From NCBI GenBank assembly GCA_001430755.1, contig CP013062.1, positions 630,001-662,000 of the forward strand: a DNA stretch of 32,000 nucleotides. The letters run 5' to 3'. Under the pieces are notes generated by a model. That model worked only from the letters and a program-made list of their open reading frames with translations. It was not told where the DNA came from and did no database searches. The position numbers and the translations under genes are program-made. Below, piece after piece: positions 4,480 to 7,993 of the stretch (position 1 is its first letter; the number at the start of each line of letters is the position of its first letter). Source of the DNA: Candidatus Peribacter riflensis. Its GTDB lineage: Bacteria; Patescibacteriota; Gracilibacteria; Peribacterales; Peribacteraceae.

Positions 4480-5028
4480 CTACCGTGGCCCATCGCGCAC
4501 GATCGGCGTGCCGAGGCCGTTGCGATCCTCCTTCACGAGCATGAAGTAGAAGTTGAATCCCCCGCGCTCCGTCTGATCCTGGGGGTTATCGATGCGATCC
4601 ACGAGCAGGCGGTAGTTCGTCCCATCGGGACCCTTCATCTGTACGCTCTGACCGACCGTACCGAGGATCTTTTCCACCTGCACCACCGCACTCGTCCCGT
4701 CGAACTTCTGTCGCACCTCATACATCACATCCCGCAGCGGCCGGAGGTCGACCGCTGTGACAGGCTGTCCCTGTTCGACCTTGGTGCGCACGGCATCCAC
4801 GGCACGCTGGGTACGCTCGAAGAGATCCTTCTCGAGAGATTCCTGTTGCAGGTGTTCCTGTACACGCTGCTGGCGCTCCTGGGCCCTGTCGGCATAGGAC
4901 GAACCCTGCGCAGGTCTTTCATTCTTCGCTTCAGGCGAAGGTTGCTCAGCTTTCGGCTGCTCGCCTTCGAAATGCAGGAACCGATGTTCCCGCAGGGACC
5001 ACGGGTGGCCATGCTCGAATGTATTCAT
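4480..5028 (-). CDS. Hypothetical protein (182 aa)
   Basis: ORF 4480..5199 trimmed to ATG at 5028 (MNTFEHGHPW...). The upstream part crosses an AT-rich promoter and a repeat motif. No family recognised. Confidence 0.55.
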   Translation of the reverse strand: MNTFEHGHPWSLREHRFLHFEGEQPKAEQPSPEAKNERPAQGSSYADRAQERQQRVQEHLQQESLEKDLFERTQRAVDAVRTKVEQGQPVTAVDLRPLRDVMYEVRQKFDGTSAVVQVEKILGTVGQSVQMKGPDGTNYRLLVDRIDNPQDQTERGGFNFYFMLVKEDRNGLGTPIVRDGPR

Positions 5029-5088: not shown

Positions 5089-5170
5089 ACTGAGGAATTT
5101 GATGTAGAAAACATGGTTGGTCAGGTGGGATCCTTCGGATCCGCTCAGGACAAGTTTGAACCTGTGTTGA

Positions 5171-5245
5171 TGTGGCTTGCCATCCGTAGCGCAGCCCAAA
5201 GATGAATAGCCAACCTTCGCCCCCTTCGTGAGCTACGGTCGGCAT
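5171..5245. repeat. Two inverted copies of the GCTACGG..GGCA(A)GCC dispersed motif downstream of tRNA-Lys
   Basis: 5171-5200 read on the minus strand gives gggctgcGCTACGGatGGCAAGCCaca. 5211-5245 read on the plus strand gives ccaaccTTCgcccccttcgtgaGCTACGGtcGGCA. Confidence 0.7.
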
Positions 5246-5263
5246 CCTCCGCTGCGCGGAGGA

Positions 5264-5340
5264 TGGTGGGTCAGGTGGGATTTGAACCCACGGCCAATTG
5301 CTTAAGAGGCAACTGCTCTACCGGACTGAGCTACTGACCC
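5264..5340 (-). tRNA. tRNA-Lys (anticodon CTT), CCA encoded
   Basis: Minus strand: GGGTCAG-TA-GCTC..GAGC-A-GTTGC-CTCTTAA-GCAAT-TGGCC-GTGGG-TTCAAAT-CCCAC-CTGACCC-A-CCA. A 10-bp hairpin (5243-5265) follows the 3' end. Confidence 0.9.
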
Positions 5341-5375
5341 TTTGTGTGCAAAATCCTATCGGCTCTTCGCCGTTC

Positions 5376-5440
5376 CTACAATACTTTTCGCGCCCGACTT
5401 GAACGTGTCCCATCCCTGCACGGGATCAGCACCGCAATGG
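5376..5440 (-). pseudogene. Displaced relic of the truB 3' end (encodes IAVLIPCRDGTRSSRARKVL*)
   Basis: Minus-strand codons 5438..5376 translate to the same 20 C-terminal residues as TruB (IAVLIPCRDGTRQSRARKVL*), with one substitution. No upstream ORF body is attached. Confidence 0.6.
5407..5440. repeat. Direct repeat, left copy: GTCCCATCCCTGCACGGGATCAGCACCGCAATGG
   Basis: 33 of 34 nt identical to 6517-6550, with a 28-nt perfect core (5413-5440 = 6523-6550). Confidence 0.95.
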
Positions 5441-5449
5441 AAAATCCCC

Positions 5450-6424
5450 TCAGCCATCCTTTTCATCCAGAATATTGCCGACCAATTCCTCGAGAACATC
5501 TTCCAGTGTCACGAGGCCCACGGTCTTGCCCTCCTGCACCACGATCGCAAGCTGGCCCGTGCTCTTCCTGAGGAAATGAAGAAGATCGTCGCACCGCATG
5601 GTACTGCTCACCTTGGGAACCTTGCGCGCGATGCTCAGTGCCAGGGCATGCTCCTTGCCGGCGGCAAGCGTCTCGAGAATGTCGCGGCTGAGCACGTAGC
5701 CGCGGACATCGTCGAGCGAGGCGCCGACGATGGGATACCGCGAATAACTGTGTTCGAAGACCATCCTGGCGACGGATCGGATCGTGTCATTCGTCTGGCA
5801 GTACACCATCCTGGATGCCGGCGTCATGATATCCGCCGTCATGCGGTCATTGAGAACGAATGCCCTGTGGATCAACTCGCGTTCGTCCGCATCGATGTGC
5901 CCCGCTCCCCCGCCCAAATTCGCGAGCGCGCGAATCTGCTCCTCGGTCCCCACTTTTCTCTTGCCGGACTTGAACAGTCGCACCGCTCTCTCGAGCAGCC
6001 ACACGAGCGGAAACAGAGCAATGACGAGTGCGCGCAAAAACGGAGCAGCCATCCTGCTGATACGGGGAGCCTGATGCGATCCGATCGCTTTGGGAATGAT
6101 CTCCGAAAAAATAATCGTCAGAAACGTCAGGATCGCCGTGATGACACCGATGACGCTGCTGCCGAAGATGGCTTCCGCCTTCCGGCCCGCCAGAATGGGC
6201 CCGAGGATATTGGTGACGTTGGTGAGAATGACGATCACGATGATCGCACGCGTGGTATGTCTGAGGAGGTGTTTCAGCTCGACGGCCCCCCAGCGCCTTT
6301 TGGAAATCATCACCTCCACTTCTGCCGGGGTGACGCTCAGGATCGCCGCATCGATCATGGCCCAGAAACCCGATACAAGGATGAACCCGACGATGAAGAG
6401 GATAAGCTCAACCAGAACACACAT
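5450..6424 (-). CDS. CNNM/DUF21 + CBS-pair transporter (HlyC/CorC family), lacking the C-terminal CorC_HlyC domain
   Basis: N-terminal TM bundle (LILFIVGFILVSGFWAMIDAAILS...), then ERELIHRAFVLNDRMTADIMTP and a CBS pair ending VGLVTLEDVLEELVG. The ORF-track start at 6475 is TTG, so I prefer ATG at 6424. Confidence 0.8.
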   Translation of the reverse strand: MCVLVELILFIVGFILVSGFWAMIDAAILSVTPAEVEVMISKRRWGAVELKHLLRHTTRAIIVIVILTNVTNILGPILAGRKAEAIFGSSVIGVITAILTFLTIIFSEIIPKAIGSHQAPRISRMAAPFLRALVIALFPLVWLLERAVRLFKSGKRKVGTEEQIRALANLGGGAGHIDADERELIHRAFVLNDRMTADIMTPASRMVYCQTNDTIRSVARMVFEHSYSRYPIVGASLDDVRGYVLSRDILETLAAGKEHALALSIARKVPKVSSTMRCDDLLHFLRKSTGQLAIVVQEGKTVGLVTLEDVLEELVGNILDEKDG

Positions 6425-6485
6425 TCTATGCAAAACAGCTCCCGCATTCAAGATGCAAGCGGCCTGCTCCCGCAACCGATGGTGC

Positions 6486-7346
6486 TCACAGCACCTTCCT
6501 CGCCCGTGACTGCCTCGTCCCGTCCCTGCACGGGATCAGCACCGCAATGGGTAGCCCCTCGTTCCAGCCGATGGTATCGGGCGCGGTCTCGTGTGCGATG
6601 GAACGCCCGTGCTTGATATCCTCCGCCTGCGCATCGGTGAGTTCGAGTTTCGGGAACGCCGCGAGCACATCCTTTAAAGGAATGACCTTCGTCCACATCG
6701 CCATCCCGGGCTTTATGGCATCCTCCACCGACCACTCCCCCACGCTGATGCGCTTGAGCCCCTCCAGGTAGCCGCCGCACTGCAGGACCTGCCCGAGATC
6801 GTGCGCAAGCGAGCGGATGTAGGTACCCGAGCCGCAGGCTACTTTGAGGTGCAGGTGCGGGTACGCGTACCGCTCGATGATGCACTCGGTGATCTCGACC
6901 TCGCGGGGAGGGATGTTCACTCCCCTGCCCTGACGCGCCTTGCGGTACGCGCGCTCGCCGCCGATCTTCACCGCGGAGTGCGCGGGGGGCACCTGCTGGA
7001 TCTTGCCGAGGAAGCGACTGCCGATGATCGAACGAATCGTGATCTCATCGGGAGCATGCCAGCCCGCAACCGGCGACCACCGCTCGATCACGCCCTCGCG
7101 ATCGTACGTCGTACTCGTGGCGCCGAAATGGATGTGTGCGCGGTACTCTTTGGGCAGATCGGAAAAAAGCTCCACCACCTTGAGCGCCTTCGCCCCCACC
7201 GCGAGCACCAAAAGCCCCTCCGCCGCCGGATCGAGCGTGCCCAGATGCCCGATCTTCTGCTCTTTGAGCACCGCGCGCACCTGCGCCACGGCGTCATGGC
7301 TGGAGGGACCAATGGGCTTGTCGATGAGCAGAAAACCATGGCGCAT
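6486..7346 (-). CDS. truB: tRNA pseudouridine(55) synthase TruB
   Basis: MRHGFLLIDKPIGPSSHD, GHLGTLDPAAEGLLVLAVG (catalytic Asp) and QVPPAHSAVKIGGERAYKRAR-like motifs. The ORF-track start at 7388 is TTG; ATG at 7346 fits the family N-terminus. Confidence 0.85.
   Translation of the reverse strand: MRHGFLLIDKPIGPSSHDAVAQVRAVLKEQKIGHLGTLDPAAEGLLVLAVGAKALKVVELFSDLPKEYRAHIHFGATSTTYDREGVIERWSPVAGWHAPDEITIRSIIGSRFLGKIQQVPPAHSAVKIGGERAYRKARQGRGVNIPPREVEITECIIERYAYPHLHLKVACGSGTYIRSLAHDLGQVLQCGGYLEGLKRISVGEWSVEDAIKPGMAMWTKVIPLKDVLAAFPKLELTDAQAEDIKHGRSIAHETAPDTIGWNEGLPIAVLIPCRDGTRQSRARKVL
6517..6550. repeat. Direct repeat, right copy (inside the truB 3' end): GTCCCGTCCCTGCACGGGATCAGCACCGCAATGG
   Basis: See 5407-5440. 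Confidence 0.95.
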
Positions 7347-7426
7347 CGGAAAGAGTGTATCGGAAAGTGGCGAGGAGATGCATGACAAACCCGCTGATAT
7401 TCCACTTGTCTTTTGCCTGGCGTACC

Positions 7427-7993
7427 ATGGGCCCCATGGACCTCACCCTCACCTGGGATCTGTTCGTCATCGTTTTCTTCGCCGTCGTCATCACCTATAG
7501 CTTCATTATCGGTAAACACGAATCCGTAAAGATCATCATTGCCTCGTACATCGCCGTCGTCGCCGTGCAGGGCATCGGCAACCTGCTCGCCCGCATTGCG
7601 ACGGATGATCCCATGTTTTCGATGCTCGGCATCACCGTGGATATCACCCTGCTCTCCACCACCAAGCTCGTCCTCTTCGTCGCCGCCGTGATCTTCCTCG
7701 CCGTGCGCGGAGGATTCGAAATCGAGTTCAAGCGCGAGCCGGGAGGCACTATCGATCTCGTGCTCACGGGCATGTTCGGGTTCGCCACTGCGGGTCTGCT
7801 GCTCTCGACTCTCCTCACCTACGTCGCAGACGTGCCGATCCTCAGTAAAACCATCGCCGACACGGCGACCATCGCTTCTATCGTGCAGGGAAGCCAGCTC
7901 ATGACCACGATGGTGACGTACCAGGATCTGTGGTTTGCAGGGCCTGCTCTGCTCATCCTCGCAACGGGATTCATCGGTAAGGAGCATGCGTAG
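7427..7993 (+). CDS. Integral membrane protein (4-5 TM, CvpA-like topology), function unknown
   Basis: ORF 7355..7993 starts at GTG. ATG at 7427 (MGPMDLTLTWDLFVIVFFAVVITY...) begins right before TM1. Confidence 0.55.
   Translation: MGPMDLTLTWDLFVIVFFAVVITYSFIIGKHESVKIIIASYIAVVAVQGIGNLLARIATDDPMFSMLGITVDITLLSTTKLVLFVAAVIFLAVRGGFEIEFKREPGGTIDLVLTGMFGFATAGLLLSTLLTYVADVPILSKTIADTATIASIVQGSQLMTTMVTYQDLWFAGPALLILATGFIGKEHA

Follow-up and report, generated by a model that had tools for sequence, protein, structure and literature searches.

The truB/tRNA-Lys junction of Candidatus Peribacter riflensis, a groundwater bacterium, holds a single transporter gene set between two different truB 3' ends. 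This arrangement is probably a recombination scar, produced by RecA-type exchange at a truB/tRNA-Lys hot spot, and not a self-contained mobile element. On present evidence, the locus does not reveal a new class of mobile element; it is a tidy but rather ordinary trace of genes passing between related lineages. It also illustrates cleanly how a very tight gene junction can take up an insertion and remain viable: the last codons of truB and the tRNA-Lys promoter seem to overlap, a new end is supplied to the gene, and the old end stays with its neighbor. More broadly, our comparisons show that uncultivated Peribacteraceae exchange whole haplotypes at this hot spot by homologous recombination, which bears on how the streamlined genomes of the candidate phyla radiation are rearranged without obvious mobile-element machinery.

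A transporter gene between two truB 3' ends

The window, that is, the whole stretch of DNA analyzed, is 32,000 nucleotides long. The features of the locus are listed below in the direction of transcription.

6486..7346, minus strand: truB (tRNA pseudouridine-55 synthase), 286 aa, intact, ending in the right-type tail, presumably the incoming one
6517..6550, minus strand: right copy of the truB repeat, encoding (P)IAVLIPCRDGT of the functional TruB; perfect core at 6523-6550
6486..6516, minus strand: right-type distal truB tail (..R Q S R A R K V L, TGA stop), with GC-rich synonymous codons
6423..6485, minus strand: spacer between the truB stop and the CNNM gene, with a terminator-like hairpin (6459->6441) and a sigma-70-like TTGAAT-17-TAGAAT (6451->6423)
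5450..6424, minus strand: CNNM/CorB-type transporter gene, 324 aa, complete ORF, with a DUF21 transmembrane domain and a CBS pair
5441..5449, minus strand: junction between the CNNM stop and the left repeat, 9 nt, GGGGATTTT on the minus strand
5407..5440, minus strand: left copy of the truB repeat, start of what appears to be the displaced resident truB 3' end; perfect core at 5413-5440
5376..5406, minus strand: left-type distal tail (..R S S R A R K V L, TAG stop), without a gene body
5341..5381, minus strand: conserved spacer into which the end of the old truB tail extends; candidate promoter of tRNA-Lys
5264..5340, minus strand: tRNA-Lys(CTT), found by ARAGORN and by Rfam (tRNA, 76 bits)

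The order is truB body, core, new tail, CNNM, core, old tail, tRNA-Lys. The original prediction, made from the letters of the window, had described, at these coordinates, a direct repeat of 34 nt with a single mismatch outside a perfect core of 28 nt; both were recovered, the core giving 0 matches in 100 shuffles and having no further copy in the window. As had also been proposed, the right copy encodes, on the minus strand, the actual C-terminal end of TruB (...IAVLIPCRDGTRQSRARKVL*). The protein matches TruB_N of Pfam (2.5e-41) and shows 100% identity to TruB of Ca. Peribacter riflensis, and its tail, LPIAVLIPCRDGTRxSRARKVL, is kept in close homologues. The left copy reads IAVLIPCRDGTRSSRARKVL* (5438..5376) and indeed lacks a gene body, since its reading frame extends over no more than 28 codons; with no credible start and a register different from that of CNNM, its translation was rejected. 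Between the repeats we found, in agreement with the first description, one real gene and no recombinase.

The core occurs twice in the window and, in the loci fetched, only at truB; a search with a degenerate version of it matched truB in each of three metagenome contigs and gave 0 viral contigs. A dispersed repeat was therefore rejected, and the core is ordinary conserved truB coding sequence. A structured RNA or terminator within the repeats was likewise rejected, as the Rfam scan of the repeats gave no match and they fold no better than shuffled sequence (z 0.1-0.6, or about 0).

An empty site in related genomes

In the related genome L102, truB ends in a left-type tail, followed by a 34-nt spacer, GAATGTCGAAGAGCCGATAGGATTTTGCAGCTAC, and by tRNA-Lys, the whole being collinear with window positions 5438->5264; L103 is similar. 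The spacer 3' of truB in such empty sites is the one that follows the left copy of the window, whose stop lies 35 nt from tRNA-Lys(CTT). This tRNA gene is the immediate downstream neighbor of truB in the empty-site arrangement, which we observed in L012, L014-L017, L102 and L103, and in more distant Peribacteria tRNA-Lys likewise follows truB directly (a scan of a genome collection with generic TruB patterns gave at least nine Peribacteria loci). The empty site, with the spacer of the left copy, thus points to the left copy as the resident truB end, and to incoming DNA as the supplier of the replacement end, so that the right copy would have arrived together with the CNNM gene.

The occupied arrangement is present a second time. 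L104 is a non-sister lineage that has the architecture and junction of the window: right-type truB, homologous spacer, CNNM, a displaced left copy joined at the matching position (where GGG(G) stands in place of the 9-nt junction), the common spacer and tRNA-Lys. Amino-acid identity to the window is 82% for TruB and 77% for CNNM. In a tree of six flanking genes, the window belongs to one clade (97% bootstrap) and L104 groups with L105 (96.5% bootstrap). The left copy of L104 has decayed: it has lost 3 nt and carries 18-22 changes in the 48 nt that precede its last 15 nt, against 0-1 changes in those 15 nt.

These data leave next to no chance that the duplicated 34-mer is an artefact of assembly or binning that joined two strains. 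Repeats of this length can give chimeric joins in metagenome assemblies, and in the P0002 lineage all four contigs break 54-74 bp after truB. However, the identical arrangement is found in 24 contigs, among them a closed genome of 1.25 Mb and contigs of independent assemblies from ENA, JGI and Logan, and its diverged version in L104 comes from an unrelated sample.

Two functional types of truB end

Over the 11 distal codons, 16 of 33 nt distinguish the right copy from the left, and a single amino acid is changed (Q/S); the differences include TCA versus AGT serine codons and TGA versus TAG stops, exactly as noted at the outset. In 200,000 simulations of 16 random substitutions, one amino-acid change or fewer with the stop codon kept was never obtained. 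Both types of tail are in use elsewhere. The left tail differs from the functional tail of L092 at four positions over 63 nt, all of them third codon positions, and a left-type functional end (...CGA AAA GTG TTG TAG) closes truB in L092, L102 and L103, as well as in L091, there with a TGA stop. The right-type functional end (...AGG GCG AGG AAG GTG CTG TGA) is that of L104, L009 and L105, and, with two synonymous changes, of L089. Since both types are working truB ends in relatives, the earlier inference that two diverged 3' ends met at a common core, and not that a local duplicate decayed, is upheld.

Homologous recombination at the locus

L089 (occupied) and L102 (empty) are sisters with flanks 94.6% identical. 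Their mismatches amount to about 2 per 100 nt in the flanks and about 10 exactly across truB, and downstream of truB the two are completely different. Judged from this alignment, whole truB-to-downstream haplotypes have visibly, and we would say demonstrably, been swapped between close relatives by homologous recombination; the two genomes differ in tail type because the whole truB allele was swapped. In a comparison for recombination patches, the truB genes of the relatives were all about 80% identical to that of the window. Against the L092 allele, the core of the window truB falls within a 29-nt exact run (truB nt 796-824), which is among the three longest and is the only run of at least 25 nt in the 3' half of the gene; by this measure, the core appears as a natural crossover site.

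An alternative to an exchange between lineages is that the insertion of CNNM created a second truB 3' end on the spot, and that the two copies diverged in situ: the old one would have remained constrained, and the working one, freed from its overlap with the tRNA-Lys promoter, would have drifted to GC-rich synonymous codons. We give this only a slim chance. Apart from the Q/S codon, the tail differences, or nearly all of them, can be reached by synonymous single steps (for example CGA to CGG to AGG, AAA to AAG, TTG to CTG, and TAG to TAA to TGA), conservation of the final 15 nt of the old tail extends to the otherwise decayed copy of L104, and right-type tails are found only where truB does not abut tRNA-Lys (the window, L104, L009, L089 and L105). 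Yet the proximal 48 nt of the old copy are intact in the window, where free decay would be expected, as in L104, and in the derived codons CGT TCA AGT the old copy agrees with the working tail of L092. Right-type codons, moreover, recur in non-sister lineages; the tail types of L089 and L102 differ through the allele swap; and L091 and L092, although uncoupled from the tRNA spacer, are still of the left type.

A possible course of events

The recombination scar that we favor could have formed as follows. In the ancestral state of the Peribacteraceae, truB would have ended 34-35 nt before tRNA-Lys(CTT), its last codons overlapping a conserved region upstream of tRNA-Lys, probably the promoter. 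Donor DNA from a related lineage, carrying a right-type truB 3' end followed by an ordinary CNNM/CorB-type gene with its own promoter, would have recombined into this junction. The join would have been placed in the 28-34-nt truB block that is perfectly conserved between the diverged alleles, as expected of a homology-dependent (RecA-type) crossover, by one of two routes: a Campbell-like single crossover of a circularized fragment, or a double crossover in which an older tail relic served as right-hand homology. The new tail would give TruB its full C-terminus, the old one would be retained as part of the upstream region of tRNA-Lys, and CNNM would be expressed as what is apparently the only copy of the genome. 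In P. riflensis, the event would be of relatively recent date.

Some observations count against a scar of this kind, and first of all against one left by a single event. The left copy of P. riflensis is preserved like a functional tail and that of L104 is heavily decayed; given this inequality, one ancient event alone cannot explain both, and a later transfer or 'refresh' in the P. riflensis lineage must be assumed. The identity of the two 28-nt cores, in turn, needs either identical cores in donor and resident, a Campbell-type duplication or later gene conversion. No donor lineage for the right tail and CNNM was found among the lineages sampled. Finally, the number of contexts in which CNNM is found, at least five (see below), hints at an unusual mobility of this one gene.

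Search for signs of mobility

The original prediction had read the locus as site-specific integration into a gene 3' end, and its content as a minimal cassette mobilized in trans. Of the first claim, the replacement end that came with the insert stands, but the site-specific mechanism is not supported: the core is plain truB, and neither the scanned ORFs of the window nor the genes called up to 10 kb to each side of CNNM included a recombinase. The second was not borne out, for want of a recombinase and of presence/absence polymorphism, and in view of the family-wide occurrence of CNNM. truB and CNNM are together in 24 of 24 P. riflensis contigs; the TruB cluster at 90% has a single member, and the TruB expected after excision (Q to S) is absent from it. 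The repeat has no GTT core of the kind seen in integron attC sites, and no integrase was found among the scanned window ORFs and the genes called near CNNM. A literature search for truB as a known attachment site matched only an author name.

Nor is the insert more alike between lineages than its hosts. Third-position identity between the CNNM genes of the window and L104 is 0.66 over codons 1-200, compared with 0.56-0.67 for flanking genes, so that over this part the truB-linked copies have diverged as much as their surroundings and identity above that of the host was not seen. Over the last 123 codons it falls to 0.33, with a breakpoint near codon 200, and by these values the gene is a mosaic, which adds to the evidence for homologous exchange at this locus.

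A single-gene cassette, made of an attP-like core, a replacement truB tail and CNNM, that entered the truB 3' end site-specifically by means of a tyrosine or serine recombinase encoded elsewhere, is in our view unlikely. It would account for the perfect-core direct repeats that bound the insert, for the displaced original truB end and for the empty site of relatives; the use of one junction in two non-sister lineages, with displaced tails of clearly different ages, could mean that the site was used repeatedly, and CNNM with its short promoter region lies in at least five neighborhoods in the family, three of them abutting tRNA genes. It is at odds with the failure to find a recombinase in the ORFs and called genes examined across the 32-kb window, with the presence of the insert in all 24 contigs and the absence of the excision-product TruB from its protein cluster, with a core confined to truB and devoid of extra RNA or DNA structure, and with the host-like divergence of the truB-linked CNNM copies. 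The other cargo of the hot spot (L009, L089 and L105) also speaks against it, having in common only the right-type tail and no flanking repeats. A single element family with shared ends was rejected, there being no common sequence past the right-type tails among window/L104, L009, L089 and L105.

The CNNM gene and its neighborhoods

The product of the gene matches CNNM (PF01595 DUF21) at 1.4e-33 over residues 27-198, and CBS, in two stretches, at 2.9e-14; the Pfam scan did not find the CorC_HlyC C-terminal domain. Many bacterial members of the CNNM/CorB/CorC family carry this domain. The protein resembles these Mg2+ transporters in its full-length DUF21 transmembrane domain followed by a CBS pair and differs from them in lacking CorC_HlyC, and we regard it as a putative transporter. 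Homologues with 55-80% identity occur throughout the Peribacteraceae and end at the same C-terminal position. In P. riflensis the family-wide gene is apparently single-copy, the one basis for this being that no second P. riflensis match occurs among the 120 listed CNNM homologues. In the search for a canonical CNNM locus in this organism, DivIC homologues did not include a P. riflensis protein.

From CTTGAATGCG onwards, the spacer between truB and CNNM is homologous to that of L104, and a TTGAAT motif also precedes CNNM in L106 and L107. The family shows at least five neighborhoods of the gene: next to tRNA-Ile(TAT), next to tRNA-Ile(GAT), at truB/tRNA-Lys, beside an Fe-hydrogenase (L106) and beside a restriction-modification system (L107). 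That CNNM always adjoins a tRNA gene holds in the first three and fails in the last two. These contexts allow the more daring conjecture, which we hold to be distinctly improbable, that CNNM and its promoter form a nomadic single-gene unit of the Peribacteraceae, moved repeatedly into junctions beside gene ends or tRNA genes either by a recombinase encoded elsewhere or as repeat-mediated circles re-entering through short homology, the truB repeats of P. riflensis being the freshest footprint. If true, bacteria of the candidate phyla radiation would harbor a minimal mobile cassette of a new kind.

Comparison with known systems

Genomic islands, integrative and conjugative elements (ICEs) and prophages enter the 3' ends of tRNA and protein genes and bring a replacement end, their attL and attR sharing an identical core. 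The present locus is like them in the identical-core direct repeats that bound the insert, in a target gene kept intact by incoming, mostly synonymously different sequence, in the displacement of the original end to the far side and in the empty sites of relatives. It is unlike them in that no integrase, excisionase or other element gene was found, the insert is 1.1 kb long with one housekeeping-type gene, the 24 contigs show no sign of excision or polymorphism, the repeat is a conserved stretch of the target gene, and the insert diverges from its L104 counterpart at the rate of host genes.

Integron gene cassettes (attC/IntI) and the pdif modules of Acinetobacter (XerC/XerD) are single-gene units moved in trans. 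Here too there is a one-gene unit of about 1 kb, with short site-like repeats and no internal recombinase; however, the repeats lack an attC-like or dif-like architecture and are pieces of the target gene, the unit is not part of an array, no integrase was found in its vicinity, and the insert has its own predicted promoter.

The recombination scar that we propose can also be compared with the homology-dependent insertion of foreign DNA, including homology-facilitated illegitimate recombination, described in transformable bacteria (PMC3240628). As in Campbell-type or homology-facilitated insertion, a short insert from a related genome would be anchored by homology to a resident gene, with the crossover in the longest identical block and no need for a dedicated recombinase. 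recA, Ruv and type IV pilus genes have been reported for P. riflensis genomes (PMC4736985), the first two being a further likeness. The classic one-sided form usually replaces or deletes resident DNA, whereas here a 65-nt duplication was left.

The old tail and a probable tRNA-Lys promoter

The candidate tRNA-Lys promoter consists of TTGTAG (5381->5376), 17 nt, TAGGAT (5358->5353) and 12 nt to the tRNA gene; its agreement with the sigma-70 consensus is weak, at 7 of 12 positions, and it fell below the threshold of a consensus scan, both of which count against the proposed reading. Its TTGTAG is made up of the Leu codon and the stop of the old truB tail. The window, L102, L103 and L104 share conserved GATAGGATTTTGCA and CGAAAAGT[G/A]TTGTAG. 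The persistence of the old tail may be explained by its last 15 nt, which appear to be under constraint, probably, to judge from this conservation, as part of the tRNA-Lys promoter.

A displaced truB end beside tRNA-Lys

Next to tRNA-Lys, a segment reaching into the 3' end of truB is bounded by a 34-nt direct repeat (5407-5440 and 6517-6550) that has one mismatch and a perfect 28-nt core, with no further copies elsewhere in the window and none in shuffled sequence. The features concerned are as follows:

7346 to 6486, minus strand: truB, whose 3' end carries the right copy of the repeat
6424 to 5450, minus strand: CNNM, a CNNM/CorB-type transporter gene
5438 to 5376, minus strand: truB tail without a gene body (left copy)
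5340 to 5264, minus strand: tRNA-Lys(CTT)

The window comes from Candidatus Peribacter riflensis; its CNNM and TruB proteins match at 100% their counterparts in the closed genome CP013064.1 and in numerous independently made assemblies. The right and left tails differ at 16 of 33 nt with a single amino-acid change; under 16 random substitutions, a peptide so well kept was obtained in 0 of 200,000 simulations. The original prediction was accurate throughout in its description of the repeats, tails and gene order. Upstream of CNNM, the -10 hexamer TAGAAT of a sigma-70-like site (6423-6451) overlaps the annotated ATG at 6424 (TAGAATG), and in alignments the start codon of homologues falls on a CTG located three codons after that ATG; CNNM may therefore start elsewhere than annotated, or its transcript may be leaderless.

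Two tail types and an empty site among relatives

The TruB tail LPIAVLIPCRDGTRxSRARKVL, where x is Q, S, T or M, is kept across close Peribacteraceae homologues, and among the relatives compared (contigs numbered L0xx and L1xx) the corresponding DNA falls into two types. The left type (...CGG GCG CGA AAA GTG TTG TAG) is that of the displaced copy; working truB genes finish with it in L092, L102 and L103, and also in L091, there with a TGA stop. The right type (...AGG GCG AGG AAG GTG CTG TGA) is that of the window's working copy. It ends truB in L104, L009 and L105; L089 has it too, altered by two synonymous changes. Compared with the functional L092 tail, the left copy has 4 changes in 63 nt, each at a third codon position. 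That both types are working ends in relatives bears out the proposal of two truB ends shaped by purifying selection in different lineages.

In L102, GAATGTCGAAGAGCCGATAGGATTTTGCAGCTAC separates the left-type truB from tRNA-Lys, and in the window GAACGGCGAAGAGCCGATAGGATTTTGCACACAAA lies between the left copy and tRNA-Lys; in more distant Peribacteria, tRNA-Lys(CTT) lies 25-105 nt past truB. It follows from this order that the left copy is the resident end in its original context, and that the right tail, spacer and CNNM are the insert. The empty site to be looked for in relatives is thus present in L102, and the predicted footprint, in which incoming DNA supplies a replacement 3' end, is supported by the resident left copy in its original context and by the occurrence of both tail types in relatives.

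The closest left-type TruB (lineage P0002, 86% identity) is found on four independent contigs (L092-L095), every one of which stops 54-74 bp past the truB stop codon, within hairpin-rich sequence. These assembly breaks suggest that in the P0002 population, too, the hot spot itself varies between strains or contains a repeat.

A second occupied lineage

The architecture of L104 is that of the window, with amino-acid identities of 82% for TruB and 77% for CNNM. A right-type tail is followed by a spacer homologous from CTTGAATGCG on, CNNM, a displaced left copy that begins at the window's junction (stop codon, then GGGG), the common spacer and tRNA-Lys. This left copy is decayed: its first 48 nt differ from functional tails at 18-22 positions, 3 nt have been deleted and several amino acids are altered. 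Over the last 15 nt (CGAAAAGTGTTGTAG), 0-1 positions differ, and GATAGGATTTTGCA in the spacer is perfectly conserved, which suggests a constraint at the DNA level. A putative tRNA-Lys promoter would consist of TTGTAG (the final Leu codon and the stop), 17 nt and TAGGAT, 12 nt before the tRNA; it matches the sigma-70 consensus weakly, below the scan threshold. If true, this proposal explains why an insertion at this point is viable only when the tRNA keeps the old truB end and truB receives another.

The second codon of the truB-linked CNNM of L104 is an in-frame TGA (7054-7059), and the gene is called from an internal Met (302 aa), such that most of the first transmembrane helix would be missing; the gene could be a pseudogene or use another start, or the sequence could be in error.

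Haplotype exchange at the truB/tRNA-Lys site

A tree built from six flanking genes (4,560 nt) places the window with L009, L089, L091, L092, L102 and L103 (97% bootstrap support), and L104 with L105 (96.5%). L089 and L102 are sisters (100% support, 94.6% identical) with wholly unlike junctions: L102 is empty with a left-type tail, and in L089 a right-type tail is accompanied by two unrelated genes, a tRNA-Lys in inverted orientation and a transposase gene of the IS200 type. Upstream, the two show about 2 mismatches per 100 nt, a density that climbs to about 10 per 100 nt precisely where truB lies. This jump is the signature of a homologous recombination tract by which truB and the variable region were exchanged as a single haplotype.

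CNNM itself is mosaic: third-position identity between the window and L104 is 0.66 over the first 200 codons and 0.33 over the last 123. The former have diverged like truB (0.64), prs (0.67) and the 212-aa ORF upstream of truB (7355-7993; 0.65). Because of this mosaicism, the two truB-linked copies are paired in 0 of 100 bootstraps of the whole-protein CNNM tree.

Other, unrelated cargo occupies the truB/tRNA-Lys gap in L089 (6938-9557: a 324-aa unknown protein, a MopE-like copper-binding protein and an IS200/IS605 Y1 transposase), L105 (5902-7296: an AT-rich block with a 212-aa gene and a PIN-like gene) and L009 (6967-7464: a 165-aa unknown gene).

Mechanism of insertion

On the evidence, exchange that depends on homology is favoured over the action of a dedicated recombinase. 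The 28-nt core consists of ordinary coding sequence of truB. It forms an exact run of 29 nt, among the three longest between the window truB and the L092 allele, and the only one of at least 25 nt in the 3' half. Between such 80%-identical alleles, this is where one would expect a RecA-type crossover to resolve. Neither the insert, nor the genes called up to 10 kb to each side, nor the other window ORFs scanned yielded a recombinase, and recA and Ruv genes are reported for P. riflensis genomes (PMC4736985). Together these observations favour one of two homology routes. A circularised fragment could have entered by a Campbell-like single crossover; or a double crossover could have used an older tail relic on the donor haplotype as right-hand homology, which would also account for a junction matching that of L104 despite the fresh-looking left copy. 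As this copy is fresh, the P. riflensis lineage would have gained or renewed the arrangement much later than that of L104, which is the least secure part of the account.

Site-specific integration of a cassette at the truB 3' end would be consistent with the single junction that bears displaced tails of two different ages, and with the at least five neighbourhoods in which CNNM and about 45 nt of promoter are found in the family: tRNA-Ile(TAT)/rpmA, tRNA-Ile(GAT), truB/tRNA-Lys, an Fe-hydrogenase and a restriction-modification system. We nevertheless consider it unlikely. truB and CNNM occur together, insert included, in all 24 contigs read, and the TruB cluster has a single member, so that the protein expected from excision (Q to S) is not seen. 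Neither a special fold nor an Rfam match was found for the repeats, and apart from the tail type, the cargo of L009, L089 and L105 has no flanking sequence in common. CNNM is a family-wide gene (homologues of 55-80% identity), with no second P. riflensis copy among the 120 matches listed. Nor is the core a generic dispersed repeat: in metagenome contigs it was found at truB only, and in viral contigs not at all. The minimal, trans-mobilised cassette originally envisaged is therefore not supported, given the 24 occupied contigs and the lack of a recombinase among the window genes scanned. Rather than a new type of element, the scar is a new example of an already known kind. A gene end that apparently overlaps a tRNA promoter, and the clear haplotype exchange in a candidate-phyla-radiation lineage, lend it some interest.

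In L107 (336-2809), CNNM directly follows a type II restriction-modification pair (RE_AccI and an Eco57I-like methyltransferase), a context that often accompanies mobile DNA.

Variation around tRNA genes

Relative to truB, tRNA-Lys has the opposite orientation in L009 (7733-7960), L089 (8812-9060) and L105 (7299-7440), as does a remnant of the old truB tail and its spacer; L009 and L089 have a ~95-bp insert flanked by an 18-nt copy of the tRNA 5' end (GGACTGAGCTACTGACCC). The orientation of tRNA-Ile(GAT) and tRNA-Ile(TAT) also flips between lineages, and single tRNA genes seem to be hot spots of local inversion and insertion in Peribacteraceae.

A conserved element of ~90 nt lies just downstream of tRNA genes in the window (5113-5200, minus strand), L009 (7540-7640), L091 (2975-3125, two copies) and L099 (6985-7067), where a related copy adjoins tRNA-Ile(TAT) right after CNNM. 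It resembles the 3' part of tRNA-Lys (CGTGGGTTCAAA ... ATCCCACCTGACCCACCA) with the T-loop split by ~30 nt (CTTGTCCTGAGC-hairpin-GAAGG), and has no Rfam match and a weak consensus fold (-5.9 kcal/mol). A second copy of the 19-nt tRNA 3' end (5113-5131) lies 150 nt away from the genuine one (5263-5281). Downstream of tRNA-Lys, a gene of unknown function encodes 182 aa in the window (4480-5028, minus strand) and 306 aa in other P. riflensis strains (11397-11945 in contig L001 versus 11397-12317 in L002). The extra length is a 372-bp in-frame tandem duplication (residues ~69-182), a strain-level polymorphism right beside the truB/CNNM site.
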